Source: Candidatus Kaiserbacteria bacterium (GTDB lineage: Bacteria > Patescibacteriota > Minisyncoccia > Phycocordibacterales > Phycocordibacteraceae). From it: 64,000 bases of DNA. The DNA lies in the NCBI GenBank assembly GCA_963699165.1, contig OY969413.1, positions 724,562 through 788,561 of the forward strand, written 5' to 3'. A program made the position numbers and the translations under genes. Shown here one piece after another: positions 1,927 through 29,117 of the stretch; within the stretch, counting starts at the first letter, position 1, and each line of letters starts with the position of its first letter. A model generated the notes under the pieces. It did not search any database, had not been told where the DNA came from, and saw nothing but the letters and a program-made list of their open reading frames with translations.

Positions 1927-1966
1927 TAGAAATTGAACGGGGGAACGTGCTATCATGGCGCACAGC

Positions 1967-2037
1967 GCGGGTATGGTTCAATGGTAGAACATCTGGTTGC
2001 CAATCAGATGATGGGAGTTCGATTCTCCCTACCCGCA
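1967..2037 (+). tRNA. tRNA-Gly (anticodon GCC)
   Basis: Acceptor GCGGGTA/TACCCGC perfect, D-arm GTTC-AATGGTA-GAAC, anticodon stem TCTGG/TCAGA loop TTGCCAA, T-arm GGGAG-TTCGATT-CTCCC, discriminator A. Confidence 0.85.
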
Positions 2038-2207
2038 CATACGAACAACGTGAGGATGTGCGGGTAAGCAGCCGCCTGCGCGGCTTGCGAGGGAGAATCG
2101 AAGGCCGCAGCGATATTCGGCTAGCAAGCCGAACCGCGAGGAGGGGCCGAGAAAATTCGTGAGCGGCGGCGAACGAATTATTCGTGGCCGATTCTCCCTA
2201 CCCGCAC
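2038..2207 (+). repeat. tRNA-linked structured repeat unit R2 (Gly-GCC version)
   Basis: TGTGCGGGTAAG-[CAGCCGCCTGCGCGGCTTG hairpin]-CGAGGGAGAATCGAAGGCC is antisense of the tRNA-Gly 3' end; two further hairpins (GCCGCAGCG..., GAGAAAATTCGT...ACGAATTATTC); ends with direct copy GATTCTCCCTACCCGCA. Confidence 0.6.
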
Positions 2208-2255
2208 CGAAGGAGGCCATAAGAAAATCGAGTAATCTCGTTTTTTCTTATGCGC

Positions 2256-2293
2256 CGAACGAGGTGACGGGTATGGACATTTCCATACACGCA
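2256..2293 (+). pseudogene. degenerate tRNA-Gly remnant (5' acceptor GGGTATGG ... CCATACACGCA)
   Basis: GGGTATGGACATTTCCATACACGCA mimics the start and end of the upstream tRNA-Gly(GCC) with the middle deleted; preceded by AAGAAAA...TTTTTTCTT hairpin. Confidence 0.35.
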
Positions 2294-2398
2294 CATACGA
2301 ACAACGTGAGGATGTGCGGGTAAGCAAGCCGCCGGTGCGGCTTGCGAGGGAGAATTGAAGGCTCGAATGCGTACTCGCCGGTTCTCCCCATGCCCGCA
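2294..2398 (+). repeat. tRNA-linked structured repeat unit R3 (shortened Gly-GCC version)
   Basis: CATACGAACAACGTGAGGATGTGCGGGTAAGCAAGCCGCCGGTGCGGCTTGCGAGGGAGAATTGAAGG ... GGTTCTCCCCATGCCCGCA; same architecture as R2 with one hairpin missing. Confidence 0.5.
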
Positions 2399-2509
2399 AT
2401 TCACCTTTCCACCCCATCTTCATCTTAAGTTCCGAATATGCTTTATATAAGCCGTTTTTGCTTGTCTTTTGGTTATGTGGTAGAAGTGGATAAAGGTGTT
2501 AACACTGGG

Positions 2510-2533
2510 GATAAGAGACATTTGTCTCTTATC
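2510..2533. promoter_or_regulatory. perfect 11-bp inverted repeat GATAAGAGACA-tt-TGTCTCTTATC (operator-like) upstream of yraN
   Basis: Seen directly in sequence about 60 nt upstream of the GTG start of the YraN-family gene. Confidence 0.3.
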
Positions 2534-2590
2534 TTTGGGTGCAGAAATGTCTGCTGTATACTTAGTAAATGAGCCGTTTTTCTAAAAGCC

Positions 2591-2986
2591 GTGGACGTTT
2601 CATCTAAGAGCCGCAAGGAAGTCGGGGCACTTGGGGAGAATGTCGCCTCCGAGTATCTGAGGCGGCGTGGTTTCTCGATTAGAGACCGCAACGTCGCGCG
2701 GAAAACCGGGGAGTTGGATATTGTTGCCAGAAAAGGCGACACGCTCCACTTTGTGGAGGTGAAGACGATGCTTGCTGATGCCTTCCCAAATGACACGGCG
2801 AAGTCCGATGAATATGATCCCTCCCTCAATTTGCACGAGGCAAAAATCAGGAAGGTCGCACGGACCGGCGAATGGTATGTCCTTGAGAACGATTGGGAAG
2901 GGGATTGGCAGGTTGATGGCTGCCTCGTTTGGATACGCCGACATGACGGCATGGCGTTTGTACGCTACCTGCCGCAAATTGTTTGA
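2591..2986 (+). CDS. yraN: YraN/UPF0102-family endonuclease-like protein
   Basis: GELDIVARKGDTLHFVEVKT motif matches the UPF0102 GE-x-D-hhA...hhFVEVK signature; GTG start. Confidence 0.65.
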   Translation: MDVSSKSRKEVGALGENVASEYLRRRGFSIRDRNVARKTGELDIVARKGDTLHFVEVKTMLADAFPNDTAKSDEYDPSLNLHEAKIRKVARTGEWYVLENDWEGDWQVDGCLVWIRRHDGMAFVRYLPQIV

Positions 2987-3016
2987 TTTCCCCTCACTAC
3001 CCCATATATGGTAGTA

Positions 3017-3196
3017 TTTCGCTCCGCTACGTTCGGGCCGCCGAGATTGGTCACGAATCTCGCCTCGCCGTCGCTCGGACTCGTTCGCGACCCCGCCTCG
3101 TCGTTTCGCCTGCTGGCGAAACATGACTGCGGCATTCAATTCTCGACGCATTGCGCGCAGGCGCAATGCTACGCCCCTCACTCCGCTCCGCTACGT
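3017..3196 (-). repeat. tRNA-linked structured repeat unit R6 (Pro version, minus orientation)
   Basis: On minus strand after tRNA-Pro: antisense T-arm TCGAGAATTGAATGCC, hairpins TTGCGCCTGCGCGCAA and GTTTCGCCAGCAGGCGAAAC (the latter identical to a hairpin in R4), GAGATTCGTGACCAATCTC, then direct copy GGCGGCCCGAACGTAGCGGAGCG of the tRNA-Pro 3' end. Confidence 0.55.
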
Positions 3197-3267
3197 TCGG
3201 GCCGCCGAGAATTGAACTCGGTCTGCCTGCTCCCAAAGCAGGTGTACTACCGGCATACTCCGGCCCG
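3197..3267 (-). tRNA. tRNA-Pro (anticodon TGG)
   Basis: Reverse complement gives acceptor CGGGCCG/CGGCCCG, anticodon stem CCTGC/GCAGG loop TTTGGGA, T-arm CCGAG-TTCAATT-CTCGG, discriminator A. Confidence 0.7.
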
Positions 3268-3428
3268 TCATACGAGATGGCATCATCCTGCGACGCCAGT
3301 ATGCAGTCCACAAACACTTTTCGTCCTTCAAGCACACCCTGCTTAGCGTTGCGAGCGCAGGACCAATCGCAATGCCATTTCGTGTGCACGGGCTCCGGCC
3401 CGTTATCTGCATCCTAACAGCTTTATTC

Positions 3429-4670
3429 TTATTGTGGCAATTGCGCGGCGATGACCGCTTCGAGCGAAGGCAACTGCGCCGCGAAGTTTGAAAGAGCAGT
3501 TGCTGTCGGTTCGGATATGAGTTGGTCAATCGGCTGTCCCGTTTCACTTGCGTATTCAGCCCGAACATAGGACGCGCTGATTGCATTTAGAGAACGCGAA
3601 TCCGTCGCGCCCTGCACCGTACTCGTGGTAATCGTACCAACGAGTTCGCCGGAAGCATCAGACACGCCGCCGCCTGAAGAACCTTCCTGCGCGGCCGCCG
3701 AACCGCCGAGCGCAAGCACGTCAACCGAACGCACGGCAAATGTGAGCACTTGCTTTATCGAACCGAACACGATGGTGGGGAAGAGATCGGACTGGATTTG
3801 GCTCGTATCAAGAAACTGCGCGCCATACGAAGCAATGACTACGGGCGTATTTGCAGCCGGTGGCGATTCGGCCAGCGCTATTGACGGGAACGAAGCGGGA
3901 AGGGGATGGGTTGTTTCGCTTTTTGTAATGGCAAGAAGCGCGAAGTCATACTGGCCGGTTCCGCTCGGATTTGCCTGCGTCAGCACGCTTTTGTTCGTTT
4001 GCAGCCAAATGGTTGGAATGTAGATAAGCGCCGCACTGTAACTGTCCACGGCCGGACTGCCGGTGCGGATGCTGCAACTCACATTTTTATCGACCAGAAG
4101 AAAATATTGCGCGATGTGCGCATTGGTGAGAATGATGCCTTTCGGGTCGATGATGACGCCGCTGCCGGAAATGGAATGCAGGCCGCTGTTCGCCGGTACA
4201 TAACAAAGAATATTTACGAGCGCGCCGCGAAGCAGAGCGGCCGACGCATTAAGCTGCGCATCCGCGGATTCGGAAAGAACCGTTGCCTGCGCAGGCGTGG
4301 AAGAGGGAACCGGGGAAGTCGGAGTCGAAATCGTCATCGGCGATGCGGGCGAAGTTGCCGAAGTGGGGTTTGTCTTCTTTTGATCGGCAACCGGCGCGGA
4401 ACTTGCGGCCGACTTTGCCGTTTCGGTTTTCGGCGCAATCTCTCCGCTAGAGGTTGCATTCTCGGTATTCTGCCTTTGAGTCGTCGAGTATTGAGGGGCG
4501 GGGGTCTTCTCGTGCACAATATTTAGTCCTGGCAGCGTTGTGCTTGTAATGTGCCCGTTCGACGCGGGCGCTTGAAATACGGATGGGCCGCCGATAAAAA
4601 TTGCGGCAAAACCGCCGACGACGAGAGCGGCCGCGATGCCGAGATAGGGAGTAAATCTCTCCACTTCCAT
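3429..4670 (-). CDS. membrane-anchored trypsin-like (S1/HtrA-like) serine protease with Ser/Thr/Pro-rich linker
   Basis: N-terminal TM helix; GSGVIIDPKGIILTNAHI (His region) and GSSGGGV (catalytic Ser GxSGG) motifs. Confidence 0.6.
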   Translation of the reverse strand: MEVERFTPYLGIAAALVVGGFAAIFIGGPSVFQAPASNGHITSTTLPGLNIVHEKTPAPQYSTTQRQNTENATSSGEIAPKTETAKSAASSAPVADQKKTNPTSATSPASPMTISTPTSPVPSSTPAQATVLSESADAQLNASAALLRGALVNILCYVPANSGLHSISGSGVIIDPKGIILTNAHIAQYFLLVDKNVSCSIRTGSPAVDSYSAALIYIPTIWLQTNKSVLTQANPSGTGQYDFALLAITKSETTHPLPASFPSIALAESPPAANTPVVIASYGAQFLDTSQIQSDLFPTIVFGSIKQVLTFAVRSVDVLALGGSAAAQEGSSGGGVSDASGELVGTITTSTVQGATDSRSLNAISASYVRAEYASETGQPIDQLISEPTATALSNFAAQLPSLEAVIAAQLPQ

Positions 4671-4702
4671 AAGGTAACCTAAAAATGGTATCCTCGCATT
4701 AC

Positions 4703-4773
4703 GCGGGATTAGTTTAATGGTAGAACGTCAGTTTTCCAAACTGAGAGCAGGAGTTCGATTCTCCTATCCCGCA
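4703..4773 (+). tRNA. tRNA-Gly (anticodon TCC)
   Basis: Acceptor GCGGGAT/ATCCCGC, anticodon stem TCAGT/ACTGA loop TTTCCAA, T-arm AGGAG-TTCGATT-CTCCT, discriminator A. Confidence 0.85.
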
Positions 4774-6486: not shown

Positions 6487-7269
6487 CTATGCTCTGCTCA
6501 GAGCAACAAACTCTCTTGGCGCCATACGCAGTGCTGAGTGAATGCGAGCGGTATTGTGATAGTGGATGGTGAGGTAGATCTCAGCCACTAATTCACCTAA
6601 CGTGTCGAATCGGTTCGGATCACCCAGGTCAATCTTGAACCCTTTGTAGAAGGACTCTTGGTAGCCATTCTCCCAGGGACATCCAGGACGAGACATAGAT
6701 TGCTGTATGCCGATCGTTGCCACGAGCATCGCATAATCCTTTGAGGCATACTCGCTGCCTTGATCCGAATGGATGACACGAGGTGGCGATTTGTGATGTA
6801 GCGCAGAGAGAAGTGCATTCATGATGAGTTGCGTGCTGTGGGTGGTGAGGACTGACACACCGACAATCTCTCGGGAATAGACGTCAAGGATGGTAGCGAC
6901 GTATACCCAGTACCCGTGGTACTTGAGGTAGGTGAAGTCACTCGCCCAGATGTCACCGTCCTGCTCGGGAGTTTGATGGAGCAAGAAGTTCGGGAATATA
7001 CTGTCTTTTGTCTTTAGCACAAATCGCTTCTTTGCGGTCCTCCGATATGGTTTGATACCGAACAATTTCATCACACGCAGAATGCGCTTTTTGTTGACTT
7101 TGAGGTAGAGTGCCAACCGTTTGTGCCCATAGGCGGGATGGCTATGCAGAGCTTCTTCGATGAGTTGCTTTGTGTGCCAATCCCTCCGAGCCTGCTTCGG
7201 CTCGTAGTACAGCGTACTGCGAGCAATACCGCTCTCGCGTGCAAGAGCACTCTTGTTTTCTCTCATCAA
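6487..7269 (-). CDS. IS3-family transposase OrfB (integrase catalytic core)
   Basis: DDE-region motifs WASDFTY, HSDQGSEYAS, C-terminal DLGDPNRFDTLGELVAEIY. Confidence 0.8.
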   Translation of the reverse strand: MMRENKSALARESGIARSTLYYEPKQARRDWHTKQLIEEALHSHPAYGHKRLALYLKVNKKRILRVMKLFGIKPYRRTAKKRFVLKTKDSIFPNFLLHQTPEQDGDIWASDFTYLKYHGYWVYVATILDVYSREIVGVSVLTTHSTQLIMNALLSALHHKSPPRVIHSDQGSEYASKDYAMLVATIGIQQSMSRPGCPWENGYQESFYKGFKIDLGDPNRFDTLGELVAEIYLTIHYHNTARIHSALRMAPREFVALSRA

Positions 7270-7526
7270 GAGCCCCTTTTTTCTCCGTTTGAGAGTTTAA
7301 ACGTCAATTCTCCGATGAGTGCTTTAAGGAGACCGTTCTCCTTCTTCACTCTGTTGTGCTCAATGATACTCACTCCTTTTGCAGAGGTGCCAAGCCAAGC
7401 ATAGATAGTGACGGTACTGACTCCGTGTTCTTTCGCTGCCTCAGCGACACTGATGCCATCGTTTTTGATACGGTTGATAATCTGCTCCTTAATCTCAGGA
7501 GCAATACGGTATGCTTTCTTTGCCAT
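7266..7526 (-). CDS. IS3-family transposase OrfA (HTH)
   Basis: Small HTH protein (ISVAEAAKEHGVSTVTIYAWL) immediately upstream of and overlapping orfB. Confidence 0.75.
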   Translation of the reverse strand: MAKKAYRIAPEIKEQIINRIKNDGISVAEAAKEHGVSTVTIYAWLGTSAKGVSIIEHNRVKKENGLLKALIGELTFKLSNGEKRGS

Positions 7527-7846
7527 AGGTACATTCTAAATTAGCTGCTGGTATTTAGAATGAGTGTCCGACGTTTGGGGTACCTTGCACAGCGGCTCGT
7601 GATTCCTCTTCGCCTGCATGATTTCACGCGCAACACGCACATATTATTTTGCGGCTGCCGGAACTCGTGCGGGTAAGAGGGATCGCATTTGCGATTCCTA
7701 AGCAAAGGCTTGTCTGTGTGCCCGAGAAACACAGAATGTGCGGACGAGACAATGTGCATAATCTTTTGCACATATCTTGCTCGAAGGAGCATCCTGCCGT
7801 GGTCGTCATTACCATGGGTCCGTCAGGAATCCCTAAGGAGGGAAAA

Positions 7847-8788
7847 ATGAACAACATAGCGAAAATTCGTAAGTCGGCCGCCGTCCGCATATGGCGGGTT
7901 TTGAGTCCTCAGGGACTCAACCACCCGATGGTGTGTGCACCATCGGAGTGGTTGCTCGAGCGGCTCGCGGAGTCCTTCGAGTCTGACGCCCAGATCTCTA
8001 AGGAGATCTGGAAAATTGCGTGCAGGGCGTTTGCTCTGCACTACCCGGGGCTCGAACGGCCCCTGGGGTCGTGCTACCACCCGGACGTGCACGACGTGCT
8101 CGACGTCGTGTATCACTACGGGGCGGCGGCGCAACGCGCGTTGCGCAAGACCGCTGCAGCGGCAGCAGTGGTCGTCACGTCCCAGCGCGAGCTGTGGACG
8201 AAGTCGGACGTGTTCCCGACGGAGGAGGGGACGTATTACGTCCCGCCGACCGGGAAGGGCTTCCGGCACGTCGAGTTGACGGCGGGGTATCTCGGCCGTC
8301 TCGCCGACGCGGTGCGCGAAGGTCGCGCACCGGAGGTGCGGGACATCCGTCCCGAATTCTTCGAAGTCGGCTGGGATGCGCGCATCGAAGCGATGCGTCG
8401 CATCGACGCCAAACTGCGCGAGCAGTATGGCGAACTGGCCGCGCTCGTCGCGCGCGACCACCGGGGCGCCATCGTCGAGTCGACTTCGGACCATCTCGAC
8501 TGGTCCGAACGGTGGTATGACAACGGGCACTGCCCGAACGGTCGTACTACCAACCGGATGGAGACCGACGGCCGAAAGGTCGTCATCTCCTCCGAGGAAA
8601 CCGAGGCGCCGCAGGGGTATTTCTGCGGTGGCGGCCGCAGGGAAATCCGGGTGGACAGCGCCACTTACGCCGTCGACGTTCAGTACGAGCCGAGGGTTGG
8701 GTACCGGCTCGGCCGCGTTTATTTGTGGCCGGGGTATAACCCGGCCACGGTCGCGGAGGCGCTCCACGACGCAATGAACCTCAAGTAG
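7847..8788 (+). CDS. hypothetical protein, high-GC island gene 1
   Basis: Strong RBS AAGGAGGG 8 nt upstream of ATG 7847; about 65% GC, unlike surrounding genome; no recognisable domain. Confidence 0.5.
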   Translation: MNNIAKIRKSAAVRIWRVLSPQGLNHPMVCAPSEWLLERLAESFESDAQISKEIWKIACRAFALHYPGLERPLGSCYHPDVHDVLDVVYHYGAAAQRALRKTAAAAAVVVTSQRELWTKSDVFPTEEGTYYVPPTGKGFRHVELTAGYLGRLADAVREGRAPEVRDIRPEFFEVGWDARIEAMRRIDAKLREQYGELAALVARDHRGAIVESTSDHLDWSERWYDNGHCPNGRTTNRMETDGRKVVISSEETEAPQGYFCGGGRREIRVDSATYAVDVQYEPRVGYRLGRVYLWPGYNPATVAEALHDAMNLK

Positions 8789-9014
8789 TTCGCCCCATGT
8801 GCCGTGCCGCATGGACAGTAGTTCTTTCCCGCAAGCGTAGCACGGAGCGCTGGCAACGAGTTTCGGAAAACTCGTAAATATTTCCGAGGTTGGCAGCGAG
8901 CCGGGCGTTAGTCCATTCGCTTGCAGGCAGGTCTGTGGAGTAGGCGACGGCGGTCCGTTGTCTACTCCACTCTATTCAGCCCGCGAATTGTTCGTTGGCT
9001 GATTGAGAATATGA

Positions 9015-9100
9015 AATCGAATTGCCGTTCCTCTTTTCCGATGGTACGCACTTGTGCGTAGTTTCAGGAAAGAGGAACGGCAATCAACGCGATTGTTGTT
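9015..9100 (+). repeat. island repeat B copy 1: long palindrome ATTGCCGTTCCTCTTTTCC..GGAAAGAGGAACGGCAAT with inner GTACGCAC/GTGCGTA hairpin, upstream of island gene 2
   Basis: Near-identical copy at 9826-9905 upstream of island gene 3. Confidence 0.6.
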
Positions 9101-9159
9101 CCGAAAAATACTCGGGCGCGTGAGCGCCAACCGGCACCGAAAGGTGCGAGGAGAGAGTC

Positions 9160-9690
9160 GTGAAATTTTTGCTCCCTAAGTTCGCCTATCACCACTGGTT
9201 GGGCAACCAGGGCCTCACGAGTTATCGTTGGGGGCAGCTCGAGGACCCCGACGTGGAGGTAATCGTTTTCCCGGATGGCCGGGTGTACCTGCCTGCGGGC
9301 GACTTCAAGCAGGCCTATGACCTGCAACAGGTCGGACCCGGAGTGTACCGGCTCCCCGCACCGGTGCCATACCACTGGGCCGGGGAGGAAGCAGACCTTG
9401 TCTGCTTTGGTTGGGGTGATGGGGACCCCGACCAAGAGCTCGTGGTCTGCCCGGATGGCCGTGGGGTCTATATGGCCGCCGGGGACTCCGGCCAGGCCTA
9501 TGCCCTTCGGCGTGGCCAGATGGGCCGGGAGGATTTCCCGATCGGCACCCGGGTCCGGTACCCGGATTTCGGCGAAGGGACCGTCGTCAGCCACGGGCCA
9601 AGTTGGTCCGTCTCCGTTCAATTCGATACGGATCATCCTGCGTCCCTGAGGGCTTTCCAGCCCAGGCGGCTGGAAAAAATCGTTCCGTAG
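9160..9690 (+). CDS. hypothetical protein with internal tandem duplication, island gene 2
   Basis: GTG start after GAGGAGAGAG RBS; internal repeat VFPDGRVYLPAGDFKQAYDL / VCPDGRGVYMAAGDSGQAYAL; high GC. Confidence 0.5.
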   Translation: MKFLLPKFAYHHWLGNQGLTSYRWGQLEDPDVEVIVFPDGRVYLPAGDFKQAYDLQQVGPGVYRLPAPVPYHWAGEEADLVCFGWGDGDPDQELVVCPDGRGVYMAAGDSGQAYALRRGQMGREDFPIGTRVRYPDFGEGTVVSHGPSWSVSVQFDTDHPASLRAFQPRRLEKIVP

Positions 9691-9825
9691 CGGGATGGTT
9701 CCCGCAAAATGGTTCGGGCGGCGCGCGAAAGCGCGCCGCCCACGAGGGACGAGTATGGAATACTCGTTCTTTCTGTATCGGGATGTGTGTCCCGACTGAT
9801 GAGCTCGAAAGGGCGAAACAGAAAT
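9690..9825 (+). repeat. island repeat A copy 1 (about 135 bp) containing hammerhead ribozyme
   Basis: Near-identical to 10456-10592; contains hairpins GGGCGGCGCGCG-AAA-GCGCGCCGCCC and ACGAGTAT-GGA-ATACTCGT, then the hammerhead motif. Confidence 0.7.
9766..9824 (+). ncRNA. type III hammerhead ribozyme (HHR-1)
   Basis: Helix III 5' strand UUCUUUCUG, cleavage triplet GUA (9775-9777), helix I hairpin UCGGGA-UGUGUG-UCCCGA, CUGAUGAG (9796-9803), helix II CUC-GAAA-GGG, CGAAAC (9814-9819), helix III 3' strand AGAAA; 7 Watson-Crick pairs in helix III including A15.1-U16.1. Confidence 0.8.
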
Positions 9826-9905
9826 TGCCGTTCCTCTTTTCCGACGGTACGCGTGGAGCGTAGTTTCAGGAAAGAGGAACGGCAATCAACGCGATTGTTG
9901 TTCCG
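9826..9905 (+). repeat. island repeat B copy 2
   Basis: AATTGCCGTTCCTCTTTTCCGACGGTACGCGTGGAGCGTAGTTTCAGGAAAGAGGAACGGCAATCAACGCGATTGTTGTTCCGA; directly follows HHR-1. Confidence 0.6.
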
Positions 9906-9968
9906 ATGAATTCACTCGGCGCATGTGCGCCGATTCTGCCGCACCGAAAGTGCGACGAGGAGGACACC

Positions 9969-10409
9969 ATGAGTTACTACGGACAAACGACGATTCAATG
10001 CCCGATATGCCAAGTTCAGGCAGGGGAACCATGCCGCGACGGGGGTCCTTTCGGCCACTCCGCGCGAGACACACTCGCGCGGGCGATGCGGTTGTCCGAG
10101 CCCAGAAGGGCTGCTGCGGCCGCTCGGCTGCCTGTCATCCGCCGCGTATGGGCGGATGACCGGGCCTGGATTGTTGATCCAGACCTAGCGGTGCTCCGCG
10201 CTTGGCTCAAGGCGCCGAGTCAAGAGACTTGGCTCGACGCCTACAAGACGGCTCTCAAAATTGAGAGCTGGCTGGCCGATTACGCCCAGCGTTGCAATCT
10301 CGCAATGGAGGCGAGACTAGACGCGGGCGGTCGCGCTATCCACGACCTCATAGACATCCTGCGGAACGAAACCGACGAAGCCGCCGCTGCCTCGCCCGTG
10401 CGCGAGTAG
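9969..10409 (+). CDS. hypothetical protein, island gene 3
   Basis: ATG after GAGGAGGA RBS; begins MSYYGQTTIQCPICQ; high GC. Confidence 0.5.
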   Translation: MSYYGQTTIQCPICQVQAGEPCRDGGPFGHSARDTLARAMRLSEPRRAAAAARLPVIRRVWADDRAWIVDPDLAVLRAWLKAPSQETWLDAYKTALKIESWLADYAQRCNLAMEARLDAGGRAIHDLIDILRNETDEAAAASPVRE

Positions 10410-10455
10410 TTCTTTCCAGTTAATCGCCAGCGCGGCACGGCGCGCTGGCACAAGC

Positions 10456-10592
10456 GCGGGATGGTTCCCGCAAAATGGTTCGGGCGGCGCGCGAAAGCGC
10501 GCCGCCCACGAGGGACGAGTATGGAATACTCGTTCTTTCTGTATCGGGATGTATGTCCCGACTGATGAGCTCGAAAGAGCGAAACAGAAAAG
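10456..10592 (+). repeat. island repeat A copy 2 containing hammerhead ribozyme
   Basis: About 97% identical to 9690-9825. Confidence 0.7.
10533..10591 (+). ncRNA. type III hammerhead ribozyme (HHR-2)
   Basis: GUA cleavage triplet 10541-10543, helix I UCGGGA-UGUAUG-UCCCGA, CUGAUGAG 10562-10569, helix II CUC-GAAA-GAG (perfect), CGAAAC 10580-10585, helix III AGAAA. Confidence 0.8.
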
Positions 10593-10721
10593 TCCACAAA
10601 GGGCTATAGGTCGTTCGAAGAACCGAAATGAAGTGCGGTGTGAGTTCTAAAATCTCTCTCCTCTAGCACTGCACTTTTATTCGAATCTCTCGGCCTGTAG
10701 CCCTTTTGGGATTTCGACAAA

Positions 10722-10749
10722 CCCCGCGCCGCAGGCGCGGGGCTTTTTG
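10722..10749 (+). terminator. rho-independent terminator CCCCGCGCC-GCAG-GCGCGGGG + TTTTT
   Basis: GC hairpin followed by T-run; identical hairpin recurs at 13707-13727. Confidence 0.6.
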
Positions 10750-10833
10750 TATGGTATGTCTTTGCTCAAAATAAACGAAGAATGTTTGGAATTCGAGCCG
10801 CATTTTTGAATGCAAACGTGGTATAATACACAT

Positions 10834-11082
10834 ATGACAGAATTACCGGCCAACATCAAGCGGCTATTCTGGGATATGGATTCGGATGCGCTCGACGCCG
10901 AAAAACACGCCGATGCGATAATCGAACGCGTATTGAATACGGGTTCACTTGCCGATTGGAAATGGCTCGTTCAAAATTATGGAACTGGCGCTATCCAGTC
11001 CCGTCTTTCCCGAAAAACAATGTTTGGCCGCGACAACTTCCGCCCGGAATCGCGCCGTCTTGCATCGCTCATCTTGCGATAA
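10834..11082 (+). CDS. small hypothetical protein upstream of AbiEii gene (possible cognate antitoxin partner)
   Basis: 83-aa ORF ending 1 nt before the AbiEii start codon; TATAAT-like -10 at about 10822. Confidence 0.4.
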   Translation: MTELPANIKRLFWDMDSDALDAEKHADAIIERVLNTGSLADWKWLVQNYGTGAIQSRLSRKTMFGRDNFRPESRRLASLILR

Positions 11083-11083
11083 C

Positions 11084-11710
11084 ATGATTCATTTTGAGGC
11101 ACTAACGTCGGAAGCGCGGGAATTGTTTCCACTCCTTTCGGCGTTCAAAAAAGATTTTTATCTGGCGGGCGGTACGGCGCTTGCACTTCAGCTCGGACAT
11201 CGCATATCCGTCGATTTCGATTTGTTTTCACCGGACCCGATAAAGAAAAATCTGCTCGGAAAAGTCGAGGCGCTGTATGCGCTCCGTACGATTGAAGTTT
11301 TTATAAATAATTCCCGCGAACTCACGCTCACTGTGAGTGGCGTGAAGCACACCTTTCTGCATTATCCGTTTCCGGTTCTTCTTCCTATATCCGAACATGA
11401 GCCGGTGGACACGCTTTCGCCGCAAGAGATTCTCGCCACCAAGGCGTACACGATAGGCAGGAGAGGTTCGCAGAAGGACTACGTCGATTTGTACACCGGA
11501 GTATCCGAGCACGTTTCAACACTCGCGGATGTGATTCAATCGGCACGGACGAAATACGGCGATGCATTTAACGACCGACTATTTCTAGAGCAGCTTCTCT
11601 ATCTAGACGACGTTCCGCAAGCAGCCATGCAGATGCTCAAAGGCGCCGCGCCCACGCGGGAAGAACTTGTAGATTTTTTTCAAAGACAAATTGCAGGACT
11701 CTTATTGTAG
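11084..11710 (+). CDS. nucleotidyltransferase AbiEii/AbiGii toxin-family protein
   Basis: FYLAGGTALALQLGHRISVDFDLFS N-terminal motif characteristic of AbiEii (Pfam PF08843-like) family. Confidence 0.6.
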   Translation: MIHFEALTSEARELFPLLSAFKKDFYLAGGTALALQLGHRISVDFDLFSPDPIKKNLLGKVEALYALRTIEVFINNSRELTLTVSGVKHTFLHYPFPVLLPISEHEPVDTLSPQEILATKAYTIGRRGSQKDYVDLYTGVSEHVSTLADVIQSARTKYGDAFNDRLFLEQLLYLDDVPQAAMQMLKGAAPTREELVDFFQRQIAGLLL

Positions 11711-11871
11711 AAAGAACGATTGAGAGGGAATACAAAAAACGGTCTAACAGTGAAAATTTCACCTTTCAATCGCACATATTGATGCATGGGATAAGAATTT
11801 TGAAAAACAAACTATGTAAGGTTCGTCAAAAATCGGACAACTTTATATAGTTTGCTATGACAAAAAAATTT

Positions 11872-12720
11872 CTACCCCGATGACTTGAGCGGTTTGTTTT
11901 TGAGACTGGCAAGAATGCGCCTGTGGTCTTCTTCCGCCAAATCCCAAAGGTAGTTAAAAATCATTTCAAATGTCGCATGAATGGCGGGATTTTCGATGAT
12001 GGTGGTTATGATTGATTCCTTATAGGCAGTTATGCCGACCTTGTTTCCATACATTAGAATCTGAGCAGGGATGTTCAATCTTTCTGCCGGAACAAAGCGC
12101 CGTGTCGTAAGTCGCTCGGAATCGCGGGCAATGATTTCTTCAAGACTTCTTTTCAAGAGATTTTCCGCCAGTGGAGTAATTGCTTGCGTCTGTATACCTA
12201 ACTTTCTTTGCTCCGCAATTTGAGCTCGTAGTACTTCCGCCAGTTCAGGATGACGATTATCTTCTGGTGAACGAATAAGCTTCATATCCTGCCGATTATT
12301 TAGGATGTCCTCGTACAGCTCTGCCACGCCGGCAACGCCCTCAAGTATCCGTATGCCGGGAGAGCCGGACTTTGCATTGAAATCCGAAATGAGTTTTGCA
12401 AGCACTCCGTCAACGGCGATTCTTGCCTCTTTTGCTTGTTCAAAGCGCTTGTCGACAATCTCTTTCAGTTTGAATGGATGCGCCGCTGAAAAGAGCGCTA
12501 CTTTGCCGGGCGCATCTTCTTTTTCAATAAGTCCCAGCTTTTGTAGTTCTTGAAGCGCTTTATACGCCAAGGTTCGAGGCACTCCCGCGAGCCGCGCTGC
12601 GCGACTCGCGGTCATTTTTCCTTGTCGAACAATCGTTTCGTACATCTTCGCTTGGTGCACCGTCAGACCGCCTTCAGCCAGCGATTGATAATTTGGAGAC
12701 CGCTTTTCATTTGAATTCAT
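11872..12720 (-). CDS. TrmB-family HTH transcriptional regulator
   Basis: N-terminal winged HTH (LTVHQAKMYETIVRQGKMTASRAARLAGVPRTLAYKALQELQKLGLIE). Confidence 0.55.
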   Translation of the reverse strand: MNSNEKRSPNYQSLAEGGLTVHQAKMYETIVRQGKMTASRAARLAGVPRTLAYKALQELQKLGLIEKEDAPGKVALFSAAHPFKLKEIVDKRFEQAKEARIAVDGVLAKLISDFNAKSGSPGIRILEGVAGVAELYEDILNNRQDMKLIRSPEDNRHPELAEVLRAQIAEQRKLGIQTQAITPLAENLLKRSLEEIIARDSERLTTRRFVPAERLNIPAQILMYGNKVGITAYKESIITTIIENPAIHATFEMIFNYLWDLAEEDHRRILASLKNKPLKSSG

Positions 12721-12937
12721 GGATTTAATCCTAATCCTCAATATTTGTTTTGTAAAGTATATTTTACAATTCTACAGTTTGAAATATCGATATTCGGCAA
12801 TAATTTAAAGCATATTTGCAATCATTGTATTTATATGTTGACATAATATATTTTATCGATTACTTTCCTACTTGTCATGGTGTTTCAGGTCAGGCCGACG
12901 CACCGTGACAACATTGATCTTTGTCTAGATGGTTTTG

Positions 12938-13050
12938 CCCCAGCTGAAAATACTTCAAACGCCGTATTGGAGTGTTACCAGCTGAGGCAAATGCCACAGT
13001 CCTTAACTCTCGGGCTAGAGAGTTTCCGACACAGTCGGAGAAGGAGAAAA
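12938..13050 (+). promoter_or_regulatory. conserved structured leader (copy 1) upstream of small high-GC ORF
   Basis: About 85% identical to 13374-13485; CAGCTG..CAGCTG, GGCAAATGCC and TCCGACACAGTCGGA stem-loops followed by GGAGAAGGAG RBS. Confidence 0.45.
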
Positions 13051-13051
13051 C

Positions 13052-13282
13052 ATGGACATGAATACCAACGGCTGCCTCTTGCTGGTCGAGGCAATAATCG
13101 ACCAAGCCCGCCTGGACGAGGCGCGCGAGCCCGGCGCGTTTGCGGAAGCGGTCCTCGAGTGGGGACCGTGGTCGGGGCTCTCTGACGAGGAGCTCGACAC
13201 CGCAATCGCATCGCGGCGGACGCGTCGTGGCCGGTCGGAGAACGGGAGAGATGTTTCCGGAAAAACTCCTCTCCCCCTTTGA
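13052..13282 (+). CDS. small hypothetical protein (76 aa), high GC
   Basis: ATG 8 nt after GGAGAAGGAG RBS. Confidence 0.4.
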   Translation: MDMNTNGCLLLVEAIIDQARLDEAREPGAFAEAVLEWGPWSGLSDEELDTAIASRRTRRGRSENGRDVSGKTPLPL

Positions 13283-13373
13283 TGGGCGCATAAGCATACG
13301 CTTGTGCACCCATAGAGGACGCTCATTGTCTTTATCTAGCGCAGACTATCTACTCTGCAAAATATGCCTTTGC

Positions 13374-13485
13374 CTTAGCTGAAAATACTTCAAGCTCATA
13401 TGGAGTGTTACCAGCTGGGGCAAATGCCACGACCCCATCTCTCGGGTATGAGAGTTTCCGACACAGTCGGAGAAGGGTCCCAACT
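13374..13485 (+). promoter_or_regulatory. conserved structured leader (copy 2)
   Basis: Paralogous to 12938-13050. Confidence 0.45.
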
Positions 13486-13692
13486 ATGAGCAAGACCGCC
13501 ACGAATCTGGTTGTGCTGGTGCTCATGGCCGCCATCGTGGCCGCCAATGTGTCGGGGTGGGTCCTCTACGGGATGCATCAGCATCCGTGGTGGGCAATGC
13601 CGGTACGCTGGACAGCGTTCTCCGTACTTGCAATCTTCGCGATTGCCGGCGCGGTGAAGTTGGCCGCTGACTGGAGGAAGCCATCGCCATGA
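13486..13692 (+). CDS. small membrane protein (68 aa), high GC
   Basis: MSKTATNLVVLVLMAAIVAANVSGWVLYG... two predicted TM helices; followed by terminator. Confidence 0.4.
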   Translation: MSKTATNLVVLVLMAAIVAANVSGWVLYGMHQHPWWAMPVRWTAFSVLAIFAIAGAVKLAADWRKPSP

Positions 13693-13706
13693 AATTCCTC
13701 CGTCCA

Positions 13707-13735
13707 ACCCCGCGCCGCAGGCGCGGGGTTTGTTG
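13707..13735 (+). terminator. rho-independent terminator CCCCGCGCCGCAGGCGCGGGG + TTTGTTGT
   Basis: Same hairpin sequence as at 10722. Confidence 0.55.
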
Positions 13736-13762
13736 TATTCAAAATCGGCGTAGTATGAGGGC

Positions 13763-14890
13763 ATGGAACCCCTCGCCGCTCGGATACGACCGCAGACGCT
13801 CGACGAAGTCGTGGGGCAGGAACACCTTGTGGGAGAAGGGAAGCCGCTTCGCGTCGCAGTCGAGAAGAAGCACAAGTTTTCTTTCATATTGTGGGGACCG
13901 CCCGGAACAGGGAAGACGACCATCGCGCGCATTTATGCGCGCGCGCTTCACGCGGCGCTTTTTGAACTATCGGCGGTTTCGGCAGGGAAGGACGACGTCC
14001 GAAAAATCATCGCCGCCGATGCGAAAGGGAAGGACAAGGTGTTGTTTCTCGACGAAATCCACCGGTTTAACAAAAGCCAGCAGGATTTTCTCCTGCCGTA
14101 TGTCGAAAGCGGGGAATTGACGCTCATCGGCGCGACGACGGAAAATCCTTCGTTTGAAGTCATCTCACCGCTTTTGTCGCGCTGCCGCGTCTTTGTGCTT
14201 GAACCGCTCTCGGAAGAAGCGCTTCGCGCCATCGTTAAGCGCACGAAGCTGAAAGTGAAAAAGGATGCATTTGATTGGCTTTTGGGGTACGCGAACGGCG
14301 ACGCCCGCAAAGCGCTCGGTATGATGGAAGGCGCACAGAGTTTATATGGAGAAATTACGGCCGAGACGCTAAGCAATGCGCTTGAGTCGCCGCATCTGCG
14401 CTACGACAAAAAGGGCGAGGAGCACTACGACACCGTGAGCGCGTTTATAAAAAGCATGCGCGCTTCGCAGGCAAATGCGGCGATGTATTATCTTGCGCGC
14501 ATGGTCGAAGCAGGGGAGGACCCGATATTTATTGCACGAAGGATGGTTGTTTTCGCTTCGGAAGACGTGGGCCTTGCTCAGCCGACGGCGCTCGTCGTCG
14601 CAAATGCCGTCTTTCGCGCATGCGAGACCATCGGCTACCCTGAATGCGCGATAAATCTGGCGCACGGCGTCGCGTACCTCGCACAGGCAAAGAAAGACCG
14701 CTCCGCTTACGACGCGTTACGCGCCGCGCAGGCGGACGTACGCGAGTACGGAAACCTGCCCGTGCCGAAGAAAATTCGAAACCCGGTCACGAAACTGATG
14801 AAAGACCTCGACTACGGCAAAGGATACGAAAAGTATGATTCCGAGGATTATCTGCCGGACGCATTAAAGAAAAAGAGGTATTTTAAATAA
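13763..14890 (+). CDS. rarA: replication-associated recombination protein A (AAA+ ATPase, MgsA/WRNIP1 family)
   Basis: IRPQTLDEVVGQEHL, Walker A GPPGTGKTT, FLDEIHRFNKSQQD motifs. Confidence 0.85.
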   Translation: MEPLAARIRPQTLDEVVGQEHLVGEGKPLRVAVEKKHKFSFILWGPPGTGKTTIARIYARALHAALFELSAVSAGKDDVRKIIAADAKGKDKVLFLDEIHRFNKSQQDFLLPYVESGELTLIGATTENPSFEVISPLLSRCRVFVLEPLSEEALRAIVKRTKLKVKKDAFDWLLGYANGDARKALGMMEGAQSLYGEITAETLSNALESPHLRYDKKGEEHYDTVSAFIKSMRASQANAAMYYLARMVEAGEDPIFIARRMVVFASEDVGLAQPTALVVANAVFRACETIGYPECAINLAHGVAYLAQAKKDRSAYDALRAAQADVREYGNLPVPKKIRNPVTKLMKDLDYGKGYEKYDSEDYLPDALKKKRYFK

Positions 14891-14898
14891 CATACGGT

Positions 14899-16341
14899 TT
14901 AAGGATTCCAATGGAGAATCGGCATTTGTATGTCGGTCGGTGAATACAAAAGGTCAAAGTAGCTGCCGGTATACAAAACTTTCAAATTCGGGAAATACGT
15001 TGCCCCCGCCGGACTGACTGCCATGTAGAACGGACCTTTAAATGGCTTTCCGGTCACATCGGCGGGATTGACCGGTATCGCGCGTGCATTTCCGTAATAA
15101 TCAAATGTTTCGACGGGTATGAAGTCGAGAAGGTACAGCGGTGTGCCGTTTGGATTTTGTTGTTTATACATCTCTCCGACTGCTTTCTCATCGCCGGTAT
15201 ATGGCGGTATTTTGGCAGGCATAAGATACATGCAAAATGCGGCTGCAATCAATATGCATATCGCCGTTATTGCGAAGAACATCGTCTTGTTTTGAGGCCA
15301 AATGAAAGATAGATCGTAATAGAGAATTGCCACGCAAATCGCAAAAAACGGAAAGGCGGGCATGATATATGGAGCCAAGTGAGTTTGAGCAGAAGTAAAC
15401 ACGGTGAAAATAAAGACGGCCGAGAGCACGGGCGGAAGGATGTTCGTAAACGTGACTTTTCTCTTACGTTGTTCCGAAAAAGCGGCTGCACATAAAGCAA
15501 TAAATCCTCCGACAATTAAAAAATTCCATGGCCAGTTCGAAGGCAGGAACCACGGAACGAAAAGCACAAAATAATCGCCCGGGTTATTTGTACCGGTCAT
15601 CGTTGCCGCAGCTCTGTGAAAGACCTGTACACCCAGGTAGTTATCCCAAAATGCATTTCCGAACCGAATTGTCTCGTATAGATGCCACGGAACGATGATG
15701 GCGAGCGCCGGCAAACCCCCGAGCCACAAATAGCGGCTTTTGATGAAAGTCCATTTTTTATAGAAGACACTGTAAAGGAGAATAATCGGCAGAACGAGCA
15801 AAATGATTACGCTTTTAAATAGAAAACCGATTGCGATGCACGGGAAAACCCAGAATAGATACTTTTCATTCTTCCGGGACTTGATAAAGAAAAATAAGGC
15901 CGCGAGCAAGGATGCAACGACCGCCGAATCAAGCCGCATTTCTCTTGCATATGCAAAAAAGGCGCTTGAAAAGAGCAGGGTTAGAAAGCCGAACATCGCC
16001 GCTATCGGGTCGCCGGTTAGCTCCAGGGCGATGAGATATACCAACCAGCAGCACAACACCGATGCGATAATGCCCGGCAAACGAAAGGCAAATTCGCGCT
16101 CGCCAAATATTTTTGCGCTAGCCATTGCCGACCATATATATAAAGGCGGTTTTTCAAACCAGTTGTTTCCTTGGTGTTGAAGGGTGAGGAAATTCCCGCT
16201 ATGCATCGTGTCGACAACCACTTGAGCATAAGTGGCTTCGTCATAGTCCACGAGTGGACGATTGGCGTCTATGCAAAGAAAAATCCCGGCAATCAAGACG
16301 AGGGCAAGCTGTGTAGCCAGAGCGTATTTTTTGAAAAAAGC
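14899..16341 (-). CDS. GT39/ArnT-like membrane glycosyltransferase (PMT_2-like)
   Basis: Polytopic membrane protein with DYDEATYAQVVVDTMHSGNFLTLQHQGNNWFEKPPLYIW motif typical of ArnT/PMT-family; N-terminal boundary uncertain (no in-frame ATG before HU gene; likely alternative start). Confidence 0.5.
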   Translation of the reverse strand, partial: AFFKKYALATQLALVLIAGIFLCIDANRPLVDYDEATYAQVVVDTMHSGNFLTLQHQGNNWFEKPPLYIWSAMASAKIFGEREFAFRLPGIIASVLCCWLVYLIALELTGDPIAAMFGFLTLLFSSAFFAYAREMRLDSAVVASLLAALFFFIKSRKNEKYLFWVFPCIAIGFLFKSVIILLVLPIILLYSVFYKKWTFIKSRYLWLGGLPALAIIVPWHLYETIRFGNAFWDNYLGVQVFHRAAATMTGTNNPGDYFVLFVPWFLPSNWPWNFLIVGGFIALCAAAFSEQRKRKVTFTNILPPVLSAVFIFTVFTSAQTHLAPYIMPAFPFFAICVAILYYDLSFIWPQNKTMFFAITAICILIAAAFCMYLMPAKIPPYTGDEKAVGEMYKQQNPNGTPLYLLDFIPVETFDYYGNARAIPVNPADVTGKPFKGPFYMAVSPAGATYFPNLKVLYTGSYFDLLYSPTDIQMPILHWNP

Positions 16342-16483
16342 ATCAAGTTTGGACACAATGCAAGGATAGCAAAATACCCGGGTATTGAAACGGCAATATG
16401 CCGCGAAGACAGGGTAAAACGGTATTTCAAATAAAAACAAGCGCGGCGCCAAAGGCGCCGCGCTTGTTTTTACTACACAAACC

Positions 16484-16759
16484 TTATTTAACCGCGTCCT
16501 TGAGGGCCTTTGCGGGGCGGAACTTCGCCGTGCGCGTTGCTGCGATATGAATCGTCTCGCCGGTGCGAGGATTGCGGCCCTGACGAGCAGGGCGTGCTTT
16601 CGTCGCAAAAATACCGAGACCGGCAACCGAGACCTCATCGCCCGACTTGAGCGAGGAGACGATTGAGTCAATGACTGTCTCAACAGCGCGCTCCGCATCG
16701 GCCTTCGTTGTGCCGAGAACTGCGTGCACTTTGTCGACAATGTCTGCTTTGTTTGCCAT
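16484..16759 (-). CDS. hup: DNA-binding protein HU
   Basis: MANKADIVDKVHAVLGTTKADAERAVETVID...GLGIFATKARPARQGRNPRTGETI canonical HU fold motifs. Confidence 0.9.
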   Translation of the reverse strand: MANKADIVDKVHAVLGTTKADAERAVETVIDSIVSSLKSGDEVSVAGLGIFATKARPARQGRNPRTGETIHIAATRTAKFRPAKALKDAVK

Positions 16760-17026
16760 GTATATTTGCTAACTGCTAATCCCACGACCTGTCTTTGGGT
16801 GGGTATGGGGAAAGTATAGGAAATGAGCCATTTTACGCAATGGCCTTTACAACCCGCCGTGGATAGCGCGAAATTTGGAACATTGGCATTAAAAGAGCTC
16901 CGCATAATTATGCGGAGCTCTGAAAACAGCCTTCGGCTCATATTGATCGATATCACTTTTCTGCCAAAGCCCTCGCTACTGGCTCGTGCGATCATTAGCT
17001 CGCGGGGGTACGGTTTAGAACACCCC

Positions 17027-17563
17027 TCAATGCTGTTCTTTTTCGCATTTGACGCGCCCGAGCTCAAGAAGTGGCTCGACGACATATTTGTTAACCTCGG
17101 GTACTCCCTTACGAATCCTCTTGAGCAGAAGCGGCAACGCTTTGTGCAGCAATACCACGTTTGCAGGCGGCATATCATTCAACTCGGCCGCGACTGACGT
17201 TCCCTCCTCTCCCGGAAACGGATTGACCCGTATCGTATTATCGCCCAGGAAGCGCACGTATGCATCTACTCCCCACGTTGATGTGTGACTGGCTTCAATA
17301 TCCCAGTAGACCGCGGCTACTTCTTGAGCCTCAACAAATTCCGGCCCGCCGCGACGTACATTCCAGATGTAATACGTGTCTACGAATAAGACCGACATGA
17401 ATTTGACGATTTCTTTCTTCTTTTCCTCCAGCCGGTCGCTGCCAACCAGAAGTTGGTCGACCATATTAGGCGGCCGCTTTGCCCGCTCAATCATGCTAAG
17501 CACAGCGCCGAGGATACCGATTAGACCAATCACTCCAACCATGACAATGATGTTGCTGTTCAC
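17027..17563 (-). CDS. hypothetical membrane-anchored protein
   Basis: N-terminal TM helix MNSNIIVMVGVIGLIGILGAVL; no known motif. Confidence 0.4.
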   Translation of the reverse strand: MNSNIIVMVGVIGLIGILGAVLSMIERAKRPPNMVDQLLVGSDRLEEKKKEIVKFMSVLFVDTYYIWNVRRGGPEFVEAQEVAAVYWDIEASHTSTWGVDAYVRFLGDNTIRVNPFPGEEGTSVAAELNDMPPANVVLLHKALPLLLKRIRKGVPEVNKYVVEPLLELGRVKCEKEQH

Positions 17564-17618
17564 GTTATTTCCCTTTCAAGGGAGCGTGCTATCTGATACA
17601 AGTGTAGTCCTTCGGACA

Positions 17619-18548
17619 CGTTTTCTAATCAATAGCTTGGACGCATTCTGTTAATATGGCGAGCGGCGTTTTGAGGTCGAGCCCGAAGTGGTGGCGGGTG
17701 GTGTTGTACCCGCTCAGATAGGTCGGCAGAATCGCATTGATTGCCCGTATCTCAATCGAAAGAGCATCAAGACACTCTTCACGCAGTGTGCGATTGAATC
17801 GCTCGACGTGCGCATTGTCGTTGCTCTGCCTGACTCTCGTGTGTCGATGGCGTATCGAGAGGCGTTCGGTGAAGTGCATGGAGAACTCGGGGCCATTGTC
17901 GGTCTGCACGCACTCGAACAGGAATGGTGCCGCAACCTGTGCCCGCTTCACGAAGAGGAGAGAGACGCGGCAGTTGATGCGCGGGGTCGCCCAGGCGTAC
18001 GCCCAACGGCTGTATACATCGATTAGTGTATACACGTACAGAACCGTTTTGCCGTGGAGTGCCAGATGGATGGTGTCCACCTCCACAAGAGCGCCCGGAT
18101 ATGCGGCTTCCGGACGTTCCGAGTGCGGGTGGTACCGTTTCCACGGGCTCCGCTTTTTGATGAGGCCGAAACGACCGAGCGTCCGCTTCACCGACGAGAG
18201 CGACACCGAGACACCCTCGTCTTCGAGCGCCCGGTGTACGACCTCGGCCGAGCGTTTGAGTACGAGACGCTTCTCGACAATCTTGTTCACAATCTTCGAC
18301 GGCAGCTCGTTTGGATGATTCCTCGGTTTTGATGAGAGCGTCGGAATCGGATGATACCCGTATATCTTCGCCTTCTTCACCCATTTGCATACCGTACTCG
18401 ACCCGACGCCGAACCGACGGCCAACCTCGGTGGGCGTATATCCTCTCCTCACCATGTCTGCAGCATCCCTTCTGACCTTGGGCATGTGCGGGTTTTGTGT
18501 GTATGCCATGACGCGATGATATCGCGTCCAAGCTATTGAACCATTACG
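17619..18548 (-). mobile_element. IS481-like (single-ORF rve/DDE) insertion sequence, copy A
   Basis: 100% identical over about 930 bp to inverted copy B at 29118-30046; terminal inverted repeats sharing TCAATAGCTTGGACGC. Confidence 0.8.
17625..18509 (-). CDS. IS481-family transposase
   Basis: N-terminal HTH (GYTPTEVGRRFGVGSSTVCKWV), DDE core TDNGPEF ... NAHVERFNRTLREE. Confidence 0.8.
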   Translation of the reverse strand: MAYTQNPHMPKVRRDAADMVRRGYTPTEVGRRFGVGSSTVCKWVKKAKIYGYHPIPTLSSKPRNHPNELPSKIVNKIVEKRLVLKRSAEVVHRALEDEGVSVSLSSVKRTLGRFGLIKKRSPWKRYHPHSERPEAAYPGALVEVDTIHLALHGKTVLYVYTLIDVYSRWAYAWATPRINCRVSLLFVKRAQVAAPFLFECVQTDNGPEFSMHFTERLSIRHRHTRVRQSNDNAHVERFNRTLREECLDALSIEIRAINAILPTYLSGYNTTRHHFGLDLKTPLAILTECVQAID

Positions 18549-29003: not shown

Positions 29004-29117
29004 ATGACGTCATTCTAGCGGTTAATCCCGTCTAGAACATGGTCTGAAATTTGGGGGTCAGGTCAGACTGCCAAATGTATCTGAACTTATGCATCCGGCA
29101 CCGCGCCCAGGATTCCC

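Follow-up and report, generated by a model that had tools for sequence, protein, structure and literature searches.

Two type III hammerhead ribozymes between small genes of a foreign island in a Candidatus Kaiserbacteria genome, and their relatives in the Candidate Phyla Radiation

What role could self-cleaving RNA motifs play when they are placed between small genes of a bacterial chromosome? The question is raised by a 64-kb stretch of DNA (contig OY969413.1 of assembly GCA_963699165.1, positions 724,562 to 788,561; hereafter the window) from a Candidatus Kaiserbacteria bacterium, a metagenome-assembled genome (MAG) of the Minisyncoccia within the Candidate Phyla Radiation (CPR, or Patescibacteria). 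A GC-rich island in this window contains two type III hammerhead ribozymes, HHR-1 and HHR-2, each located 3' of a small open reading frame (ORF) on the same strand. The reading that we favor, with a probability of roughly 0.65, is that they cleave a polycistronic RNA co-transcriptionally into single-gene mRNAs with structured ends, and so uncouple neighboring cistrons.

Two hammerheads in a repeated intergenic module

The segments of the island that bear directly on the ribozymes are listed here from left to right (nt, nucleotides; aa, amino acids).

9020-9157, + strand: repeat B copy 1, a 5' untranslated region (UTR) module with a 64-nt imperfect hairpin (9021-9084), small hairpins (9115-9128 and 9134-9147) and a Shine-Dalgarno (SD) site, GAGGAG (9148-9153)
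9160-9690, + strand: ORF1, a 176-aa orphan with a GTG start
9690-9769, + strand: 5' part of repeat A copy 1, with hairpins at 9690-9705, 9716-9741 and approximately 9747-9769, the last abutting helix III
9770-9824, + strand: HHR-1, type III hammerhead, predicted cleavage between A9777 and U9778
9823-9962, + strand: repeat B copy 2, with its long hairpin (9824-9886) directly after helix III, then small hairpins, an SD site (GAGGAGG) and ORF2
9969-10409, + strand: ORF2, 146 aa from the ATG at 9969, with an N-terminal phage zinc-finger domain (PF24623) and otherwise an orphan
10404-10450, + strand: AGTAGTTCTTTCC and the CCAGCGCGGCACGGCGCGCTGG hairpin, after the ORF2 stop
10456-10535, + strand: 5' part of repeat A copy 2, with the same three hairpins as copy 1
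10536-10590, + strand: HHR-2, type III hammerhead, predicted cleavage between A10543 and U10544
10590-10714, + strand: imperfect hairpin of ~125 nt directly after HHR-2, unrelated in sequence to repeat B and without an Rfam match
10722-10752, + strand: intrinsic terminator with 9 G-C pairs and then a run of U

An earlier note on this DNA had described two type III hammerheads with a full core in the correct order and a 7-bp helix III, and all of these elements were found on re-reading positions 9000-11200. Helix III of HHR-1 pairs UUUCUGU (9770-9776) with ACAGAAA (9818-9824), and HHR-2 has the same strands. Both copies carry the cleavage triplet GUA (9775-9777 in HHR-1), in agreement with the predicted cleavage positions, 9777 and 10543, that the note had given. 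The 6-bp helix I (UCGGGA/UCCCGA) is capped by a 6-nt loop (UGUGUG in copy 1, UGUAUG in copy 2) and followed by CUGAUGA, helix II, GAAA, and the A15.1-U16.1 pair that closes helix III. Helix II has 4 bp and a GAAA tetraloop, reading GCUC-GAAA-GGGC in copy 1 (with a U.G wobble) and ending in GAGC in copy 2 (with U-A). The conserved core is complete in both copies (C3 U4 G5 A6 N7 G8 A9, G12 A13 A14, A15.1-U16.1 and the H17 site), and the topology is that of type III: in the cmscan alignment helices I and II each end in a loop and helix III is open.

Both motifs align to positions 1-54, the full length, of the Rfam model RF00008 (Hammerhead_3), with cmscan scores of 45.1 bits for HHR-1 and 46.4 bits for HHR-2 (curated gathering score 48.5), and E-values of 4e-8 and 1.7e-8 on 2.1 kb, or 1.3e-6 and 5e-7 on both strands of the whole window. 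A scan of the window at Rfam gathering thresholds reports only 4 tRNAs, and the hammerheads surface only under E-value thresholds; no further hammerheads or other ribozyme classes were found in the 64-kb window at E<=0.05. In isolated 61-nt RNAs the hammerhead is both the minimum free energy (MFE) structure and the centroid, with z scores of -3.1 and -3.6 (0/200 shuffles). In the native context of repeat A and the downstream hairpin, a hammerhead-competent fold lies 0.4-1.3 kcal/mol above the MFE and is accessible. Judged on sequence and predicted fold, both motifs are very probably genuine hammerheads that are competent for cleavage.

Other weak Rfam matches were set aside. A match of the sbcD RNA motif (RF01757) to repeat A reaches 38.2 bits against a gathering score of 40, occurs in copy 1 only with a 51-nt model deletion and mispairs, depends on the search filter and is lost in the whole-window scan; it was judged a hairpin artefact. 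Matches to NLPC-P60, ftsZ-DE and other models fall on GC-rich hairpins, far under their thresholds.

Each ribozyme forms the 3' end of repeat A, a 135-nt direct repeat (9690-9824 and 10456-10590) composed of three hairpins and then the ribozyme, and the two ribozymes are spaced 766 nt apart on the same strand. When aligned, the repeat A copies differ at two positions, one in loop 1 and the other in helix II, where pairing is kept (U.G to U-A), as the note had stated. The note's placement of each ribozyme within repeats and after a small same-strand ORF of high GC likewise stands, the ORF ends lying 80 nt (HHR-1) and 127 nt (HHR-2) upstream. Repeat B precedes the start of each of ORF1 and ORF2, its copies differing mostly in loops, and there is no spacer between hairpin 3 of repeat A, helix III and the B hairpin. 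The island is ordered ORF0, B, ORF1, A with HHR-1, B, ORF2, A with HHR-2, the 125-nt hairpin and the terminator; HHR-1 follows ORF1, and HHR-1 and HHR-2 bracket ORF2. The unit has a single strong terminator (10722-10742), downstream of the second ribozyme, and this is likely the end of the transcription unit. A 212-nt 3' fragment that includes the post-HHR-2 hairpin has a z score of -8.9.

Within the viral and metagenome collections, the MAG of the window is essentially the only source of repeat B and of the exact ribozyme body: the B hairpin has one 18-mer chance match in viral contigs (L050), without hairpin or ribozyme, and 0 matches in JGI metagenomes, and the window-type ribozyme body has 0 matches in viral contigs and only one in metagenomes (L173, which is the same as L080).

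Relatives of the ribozymes and their distribution

Relatives were sought with the pattern CTGATGAGNNNGAAANNNCGAAAC, in which only the core, the first pair of helix II and the GAAA loop are fixed, and which defines a subtype with a 4-bp helix II and GAAA. The genome scan used GTDB with one genome per species (185,579 species genomes, 596 Gb), and all genomic figures below refer to the matches listed. There are 48 viral-contig loci and at least 118 loci in GTDB species genomes with the pattern, and among the matches listed 157/187 pass a structural check for a perfect helix I, GUH and helix III. In the typical relative, helix I has 6 bp and a 6-nt loop (UGUGUA or UGUGUG), and helix III has 4-6 bp; the GUA site and 7-bp helix III of the window are minority states, with 7 bp present in 10/157.

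Covariation was assessed in an alignment of 99 distinct genomic sequences from the matches listed, the two window copies included. Paired cells make up 91% of the alignment, compared with 67% in shuffles and 31-45% in slid registers; double changes occur in 14/17 pairs, and the covariation score is 0.69 versus 0.22 in shuffles (0/500) and 0.07-0.14 in slid registers. The three helix II pairs that the search pattern leaves free are 99% paired, with 3-4 pair types each. In type III hammerheads, a tertiary contact between loops 1 and 2 permits rapid cleavage at low Mg2+. Loop 1 is conserved as UGUGUR across the family (U15 invariant, G16 and U19 at least 90%), and the constancy of the loop 2 GAAA is set by the search pattern. 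Given this strong covariation across 99 sequences, the window ribozymes belong to a real, selected family.

The genomic relatives are concentrated in the CPR. By record title the loci (at least 118) divide into 86 from the CPR, 7 labelled 'uncultured bacterium', 9 from other phyla and 16 without a hammerhead fold, such that the CPR accounts for 86/102 (~84%) of the fold-positive genomic loci among the matches listed. The CPR labels are Saccharibacteria, Paceibacterota, Parcubacteria, Minisyncoccia, and Kaiser-, Taylor-, Nomura-, Wolfe-, Uhr-, Ames- and Shapirobacteria, and none of the 16 fold-negative matches listed is from the CPR. By chance alone the 596 Gb should yield ~17 matches to the pattern; the scan therefore took in most of the collection, and these chance matches provide an internal control for composition. 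Many genomic matches lie on contigs of 100-800 kb, which are therefore chromosomes. Among the matches listed, this hammerhead subtype resides mainly in CPR genomes, and the window is thus a typical case, not an oddity. The note had regarded the layout as unreported for CPR-like genomes; full-text literature searches agree with this, finding no paper that relevantly joins hammerheads with Patescibacteria, Candidate Phyla Radiation, Saccharibacteria or Parcubacteria.

Some of the non-CPR or unlabelled loci are identical in sequence to CPR contigs. The ribozyme regions are identical or nearly so in Phycisphaerales and Polynucleobacter bins and CPR MAGs of Wolfebacteria and Saccharimonadales (L056 versus L112, L064 versus L088), which suggests mis-binning or a common mobile element.

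In the relatives, a stable hairpin immediately upstream is enriched: the 45 nt before helix III are significantly more structured than controls, with Mann-Whitney p values of 6e-11 for genomes and 1e-11 for viral contigs. Among the matches listed, a same-strand ORF ends within 200 nt upstream of 70/100 ribozymes (median 84 nt) compared with 34/100 random positions, and a same-strand SD site and start lie within 150 nt downstream of 33/100, compared with 7-10 in controls (3-5x). The flanking ORFs have a median length of ~130 aa and nearly all are without a Pfam or PHROG match, the few matches being heterogeneous (exonuclease, helicase, repressor, MazF). Small ORFs interspersed with 2-5 ribozymes at spacings of 0.3-1.8 kb form arrays that recur (L072, L139, L080, L057), and in L080 the ribozyme and its downstream leader are repeated, as are A and B in the window.

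A TrmB-like helix-turn-helix protein (~255-290 aa) is the sole recurrent family near the CPR hammerheads listed, with 39 genes in 35/99 loci; the next family occurs in at most 6. Thirty-two of these genes are upstream and 5 downstream (upstream sequence is 41% of flanking bases; binomial p 1.7e-8), and by orientation 17 are co-directional and 15 divergent. No TrmB-like genes were found in 48 viral loci. The concentration of the subtype in the CPR is apparently unreported.

The motif (A/T)GTTCTTTnAAAA is present 3-10 nt past helix III in 53/115 of the CPR hammerheads listed versus 1/42 viral ones. In the window, AGTAGTTCTTTCC occurs at 8816-8828 (after the ORF0 region) and 10404-10416 (after the ORF2 stop), and GTTCTTT at 9766-9772 and 10532-10538 forms the 5' edge of helix III. 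A role for GTTCTTT as a switch pairing with helix II or loop 2 was rejected, since it shows no covariation with the variants of helix II.

Transcript processing and its alternatives

We propose that ORF1 and ORF2, perhaps together with ORF0, would form an operon that lies on a CPR chromosome, ends at the terminator near 10750 and carries the ribozymes in its intergenic modules. As each module is transcribed, the nascent ribozyme would fold between two abutting hairpins and cleave after GUA (9777, 10543). The upstream mRNA would then end in a 2',3'-cyclic phosphate a few nt past a stack of three stable hairpins that could shield its 3' end. The downstream mRNA would begin with a 5'-OH within the folded ribozyme body, which, together with the long B hairpin after HHR-1, could shield the 5' end, and a short structured leader would lead into the SD site. 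The net effect would be that the stability and translation of adjacent small genes are uncoupled. Cutting into single-gene units, the role assigned to the ribozymes in the earlier note, is the best-supported mechanism and has been proposed, and in part demonstrated in vitro, for prophage arrays (PMC3088659); for the island, both cleavage and co-transcription are predictions.

Several observations weigh against this reading. What hammerheads do in bacteria is still called an open question in a 2017 review (PMC6155905). A promoter was looked for in the island and none was found. In the MFE structure of the full repeat, hairpin 3 is prolonged and takes up bases from the 5' side of helix III, and part of the RNA population could therefore be inactive. 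Finally, both RF00008 scores are 2-3 bits below the gathering score, an outcome that the note had listed as a refutation. This shortfall stems from the loops, loop 1 exceeding the model consensus by 5 nt and loop 2 falling 4 nt short of it, the core and helices not being at fault; and since the E-values are ~1e-7, the core is complete and the family of 99 sequences covaries, it is no real refutation.

Among the alternatives, the one that survives best is that A and B act chiefly as boundaries for the recombination or mobility of cassettes, either integron-like or akin to phage 'boundary sequences' for module shuffling, with the ribozyme as a passenger. Two unrelated ORFs each lie between a B and an A module, and A and B meet precisely at 9823/9824; the island is compositionally foreign (GC content at third codon positions, GC3, of 69-81% versus a window GC of 53.6%) and adjoins an IS3 transposase and an AbiE toxin-antitoxin pair; and L080 likewise repeats ribozyme and downstream leader before different ORFs. 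The B hairpin however lacks the core-site polarity of attC, no integron integrase or tyrosine recombinase is adjacent, B is absent from other viral and metagenome contigs with the exact ribozyme body recurring only in L080, and the ribozyme itself is under strong purifying selection with covariation across 99 sequences. We consider this explanation unlikely. Its integron form, in the sense of which the earlier word 'cassette-like' should not be taken, is rejected because the core polarity of B is wrong and no integrase is present: the hairpin reads GTTCC...GGAAC (GTT...AAC), the opposite of the attC arrangement R''(RYYYAAC)...R'(GTTRRRY) (AAC...GTT), the neighbors are IS3, DUF6922/AbiEii and TrmB, and the IS3 transposase is the only recombinase nearby.

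Somewhat less probable still is that the motifs are inert relics of a degraded prophage without function in the host genome. ORF2 has a phage zinc-finger domain, the island is small, flanked by an insertion sequence (IS) and without phage structural genes, and the 3' region of ORF0 resembles an A-type module minus the ribozyme. Decay of this kind sits poorly with the retention of all catalytic nucleotides in both copies, a sole helix substitution that keeps pairing, hairpins that abut helix III on both sides without a spacer, and the lack of similarity to 50,697 phage records.

The least probable alternative, which we regard as very improbable, is that double cleavage frees a 766-nt RNA (9778-10543) whose ends would rebuild a whole hammerhead and be joined by the reverse reaction or an RtcB-type ligase into a circular, retrozyme- or viroid-like ORF2 mRNA: it draws on the two same-strand type III hammerheads in 135-nt direct repeats, a helix III longer than in most relatives and a loop 1/loop 2 combination shared with two records of viroid size (L019, 366 nt; L045, 322 nt) from the viral collection, but relatives vary in spacing and ribozyme number and are often single, the element is chromosomal DNA with ordinary SD-led ORFs, no ligase was identified at the locus, and circular or spliced products of bacterial arrays were sought by Perreault et al. 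and none found (PMC3088659).

The island, its neighborhood and related systems

The remaining features of the island and its surroundings are as follows.

1670-4773, three on the + strand and one on the - strand: four tRNA genes within 3.1 kb, upstream of the IS and island
6487-7526, - strand: IS3-family transposase, an orfA/orfB pair bordering the island
7847-8788, + strand: ORF0, 313 aa, first island gene, GC 64.6%, GC3 81%, without a family match
8816-8875, + strand: ORF0 3' region, a module that is A-like but diverged and has no ribozyme; it holds AGTAGTTCTTTCC and two hairpins, one of CCAGCGC..GCGCTGG type and one ACGAGT..ACTCGT
10834-11710, + strand: DUF6922 and AbiEii nucleotidyltransferase toxin pair, a type IV toxin-antitoxin / abortive-infection module right after the island terminator
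11872-12741, - strand: the TrmB-like member of the window, downstream of the ribozymes and convergent

The island has a GC content of 61.7%, and ORF0-2 are 63-65% GC; it is compositionally foreign and horizontally acquired, with the IS3 transposase on one side and the DUF6922/AbiEii pair on the other. Phage-related signs at the locus comprise the transposase, the ORF2 zinc-finger domain and the foreign GC, with no PHROG matches of note; a blastn search of the island against the 50,697 phage records gave no match, and PADLOC, NCBIfam and PHROGs gave nothing useful for the island proteins. ORF1 and ORF2 have only self-matches among 5.8 billion proteins, so that the cargo, described earlier as uncharacterised, is orphan apart from the PF24623 domain of ORF2. 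ORF1 contains two internal repeats of ~60 aa (DNA repeats D3/D4, 180-183 nt apart) that weakly resemble beta-propeller blade motifs in an exhaustive HMMER search, and the similarity of its C-terminal ~50 aa to the UvrD/PcrA C-terminal domain is non-significant (E 0.6). ORF0 has eight homologues in CPR-type chromosomal contexts, and no hammerheads were found near them on the four contigs traced.

The ORF0-ORF1 spacer (8789-9020) has a high degree of structure (z = -7.4), with a hairpin of 16 bp at ~8935-8970; three short elements in it are common to the ORF2 3' region, and it has no ribozyme. A decayed hammerhead upstream of B copy 1 was not supported, the global alignment being no better than 202/1000 shuffles. 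An identical 930-nt stretch with an rve-domain ORF is present at 17619-18548 and 29117-30046 in inverted orientation, and the MAG assembly is fragmented, with breaks at the 930-nt IS copies. Positions 7464-18548 of the window are identical to contig JBAPNL010000088 of GCA_049279115.1.

The layout of the window has been described before, as gene-flanking arrays are reported both by Perreault et al. in 2011 and in a 2017 review, and the note was correct that it is known from phage and mobile contexts. Perreault et al. found clustered hammerheads flanking genes in prophages and proposed processing into single-gene mRNAs; three such arrays cleave in vitro and one in E. coli (PMC3088659). The review describes hammerheads that are often close together and flank ORFs for small non-conserved proteins, with a persistent link to phages (PMC6155905). 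In the prophage arrays (PMC3088659), as in the window, two or more same-strand ribozymes bracket small non-conserved ORFs in mobile or foreign DNA. In contrast to them, no integrase or prophage was recognised at the locus of the window, its ribozymes are embedded in the larger repeats A (three hairpins and the ribozyme) and B (long hairpin leader), and its host belongs to the CPR, in which the subtype is concentrated and a TrmB-like regulator gene is often found upstream of it. The RF00008 family shares the core (CUGAUGA, GAAA, A15.1-U16.1 and a GUH site) and the type III topology; the window ribozymes differ in their longer loop 1 (6-nt UGUGUG on a 6-bp stem), their minimal 4-bp helix II with GAAA, and their host, a CPR bacterium and not a viroid, satellite or plant. 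Retrozymes and viroid-like circular RNAs also have type III hammerheads in direct repeats that delimit a sub-kilobase RNA, whereas the window element is protein-coding, with SD-led ORFs on a bacterial chromosome and no sign of circles, reverse transcription or target-site duplications.

RiboJ-type insulators are engineered elements in which the hammerhead of the satellite RNA of tobacco ringspot virus (sTRSV) and a downstream hairpin are placed in a 5' UTR, and cleavage strips the upstream context from the mRNA. The window element is a natural counterpart, in that a hammerhead is followed by a hairpin and then a ribosome binding site in both; unlike the engineered RiboJ, it also gives the upstream gene a 3' end that would be protected by hairpins.

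The locus is a clean case of a ribozyme with a 3' hairpin stack immediately on one side and a 5' leader hairpin immediately on the other, and the model of mRNA processing and insulation is therefore directly testable. A broader view, which we hold only tentatively and consider rather doubtful, is that the subtype is a lineage-enriched RNA-processing module of the CPR/Patescibacteria and not an occasional phage passenger. It would punctuate operons of hypervariable small proteins, usually downstream of or divergent from a TrmB-like regulator gene, and may replace RNA-processing functions in reduced genomes, and the window would be one IS-rearranged example of an undescribed CPR-wide system. The survey may matter more than the locus itself, as it identifies the CPR as a lineage in which such ribozymes are common enough for statistical study, and since some Saccharibacteria are cultivable, the mapping of transcript ends is feasible there.

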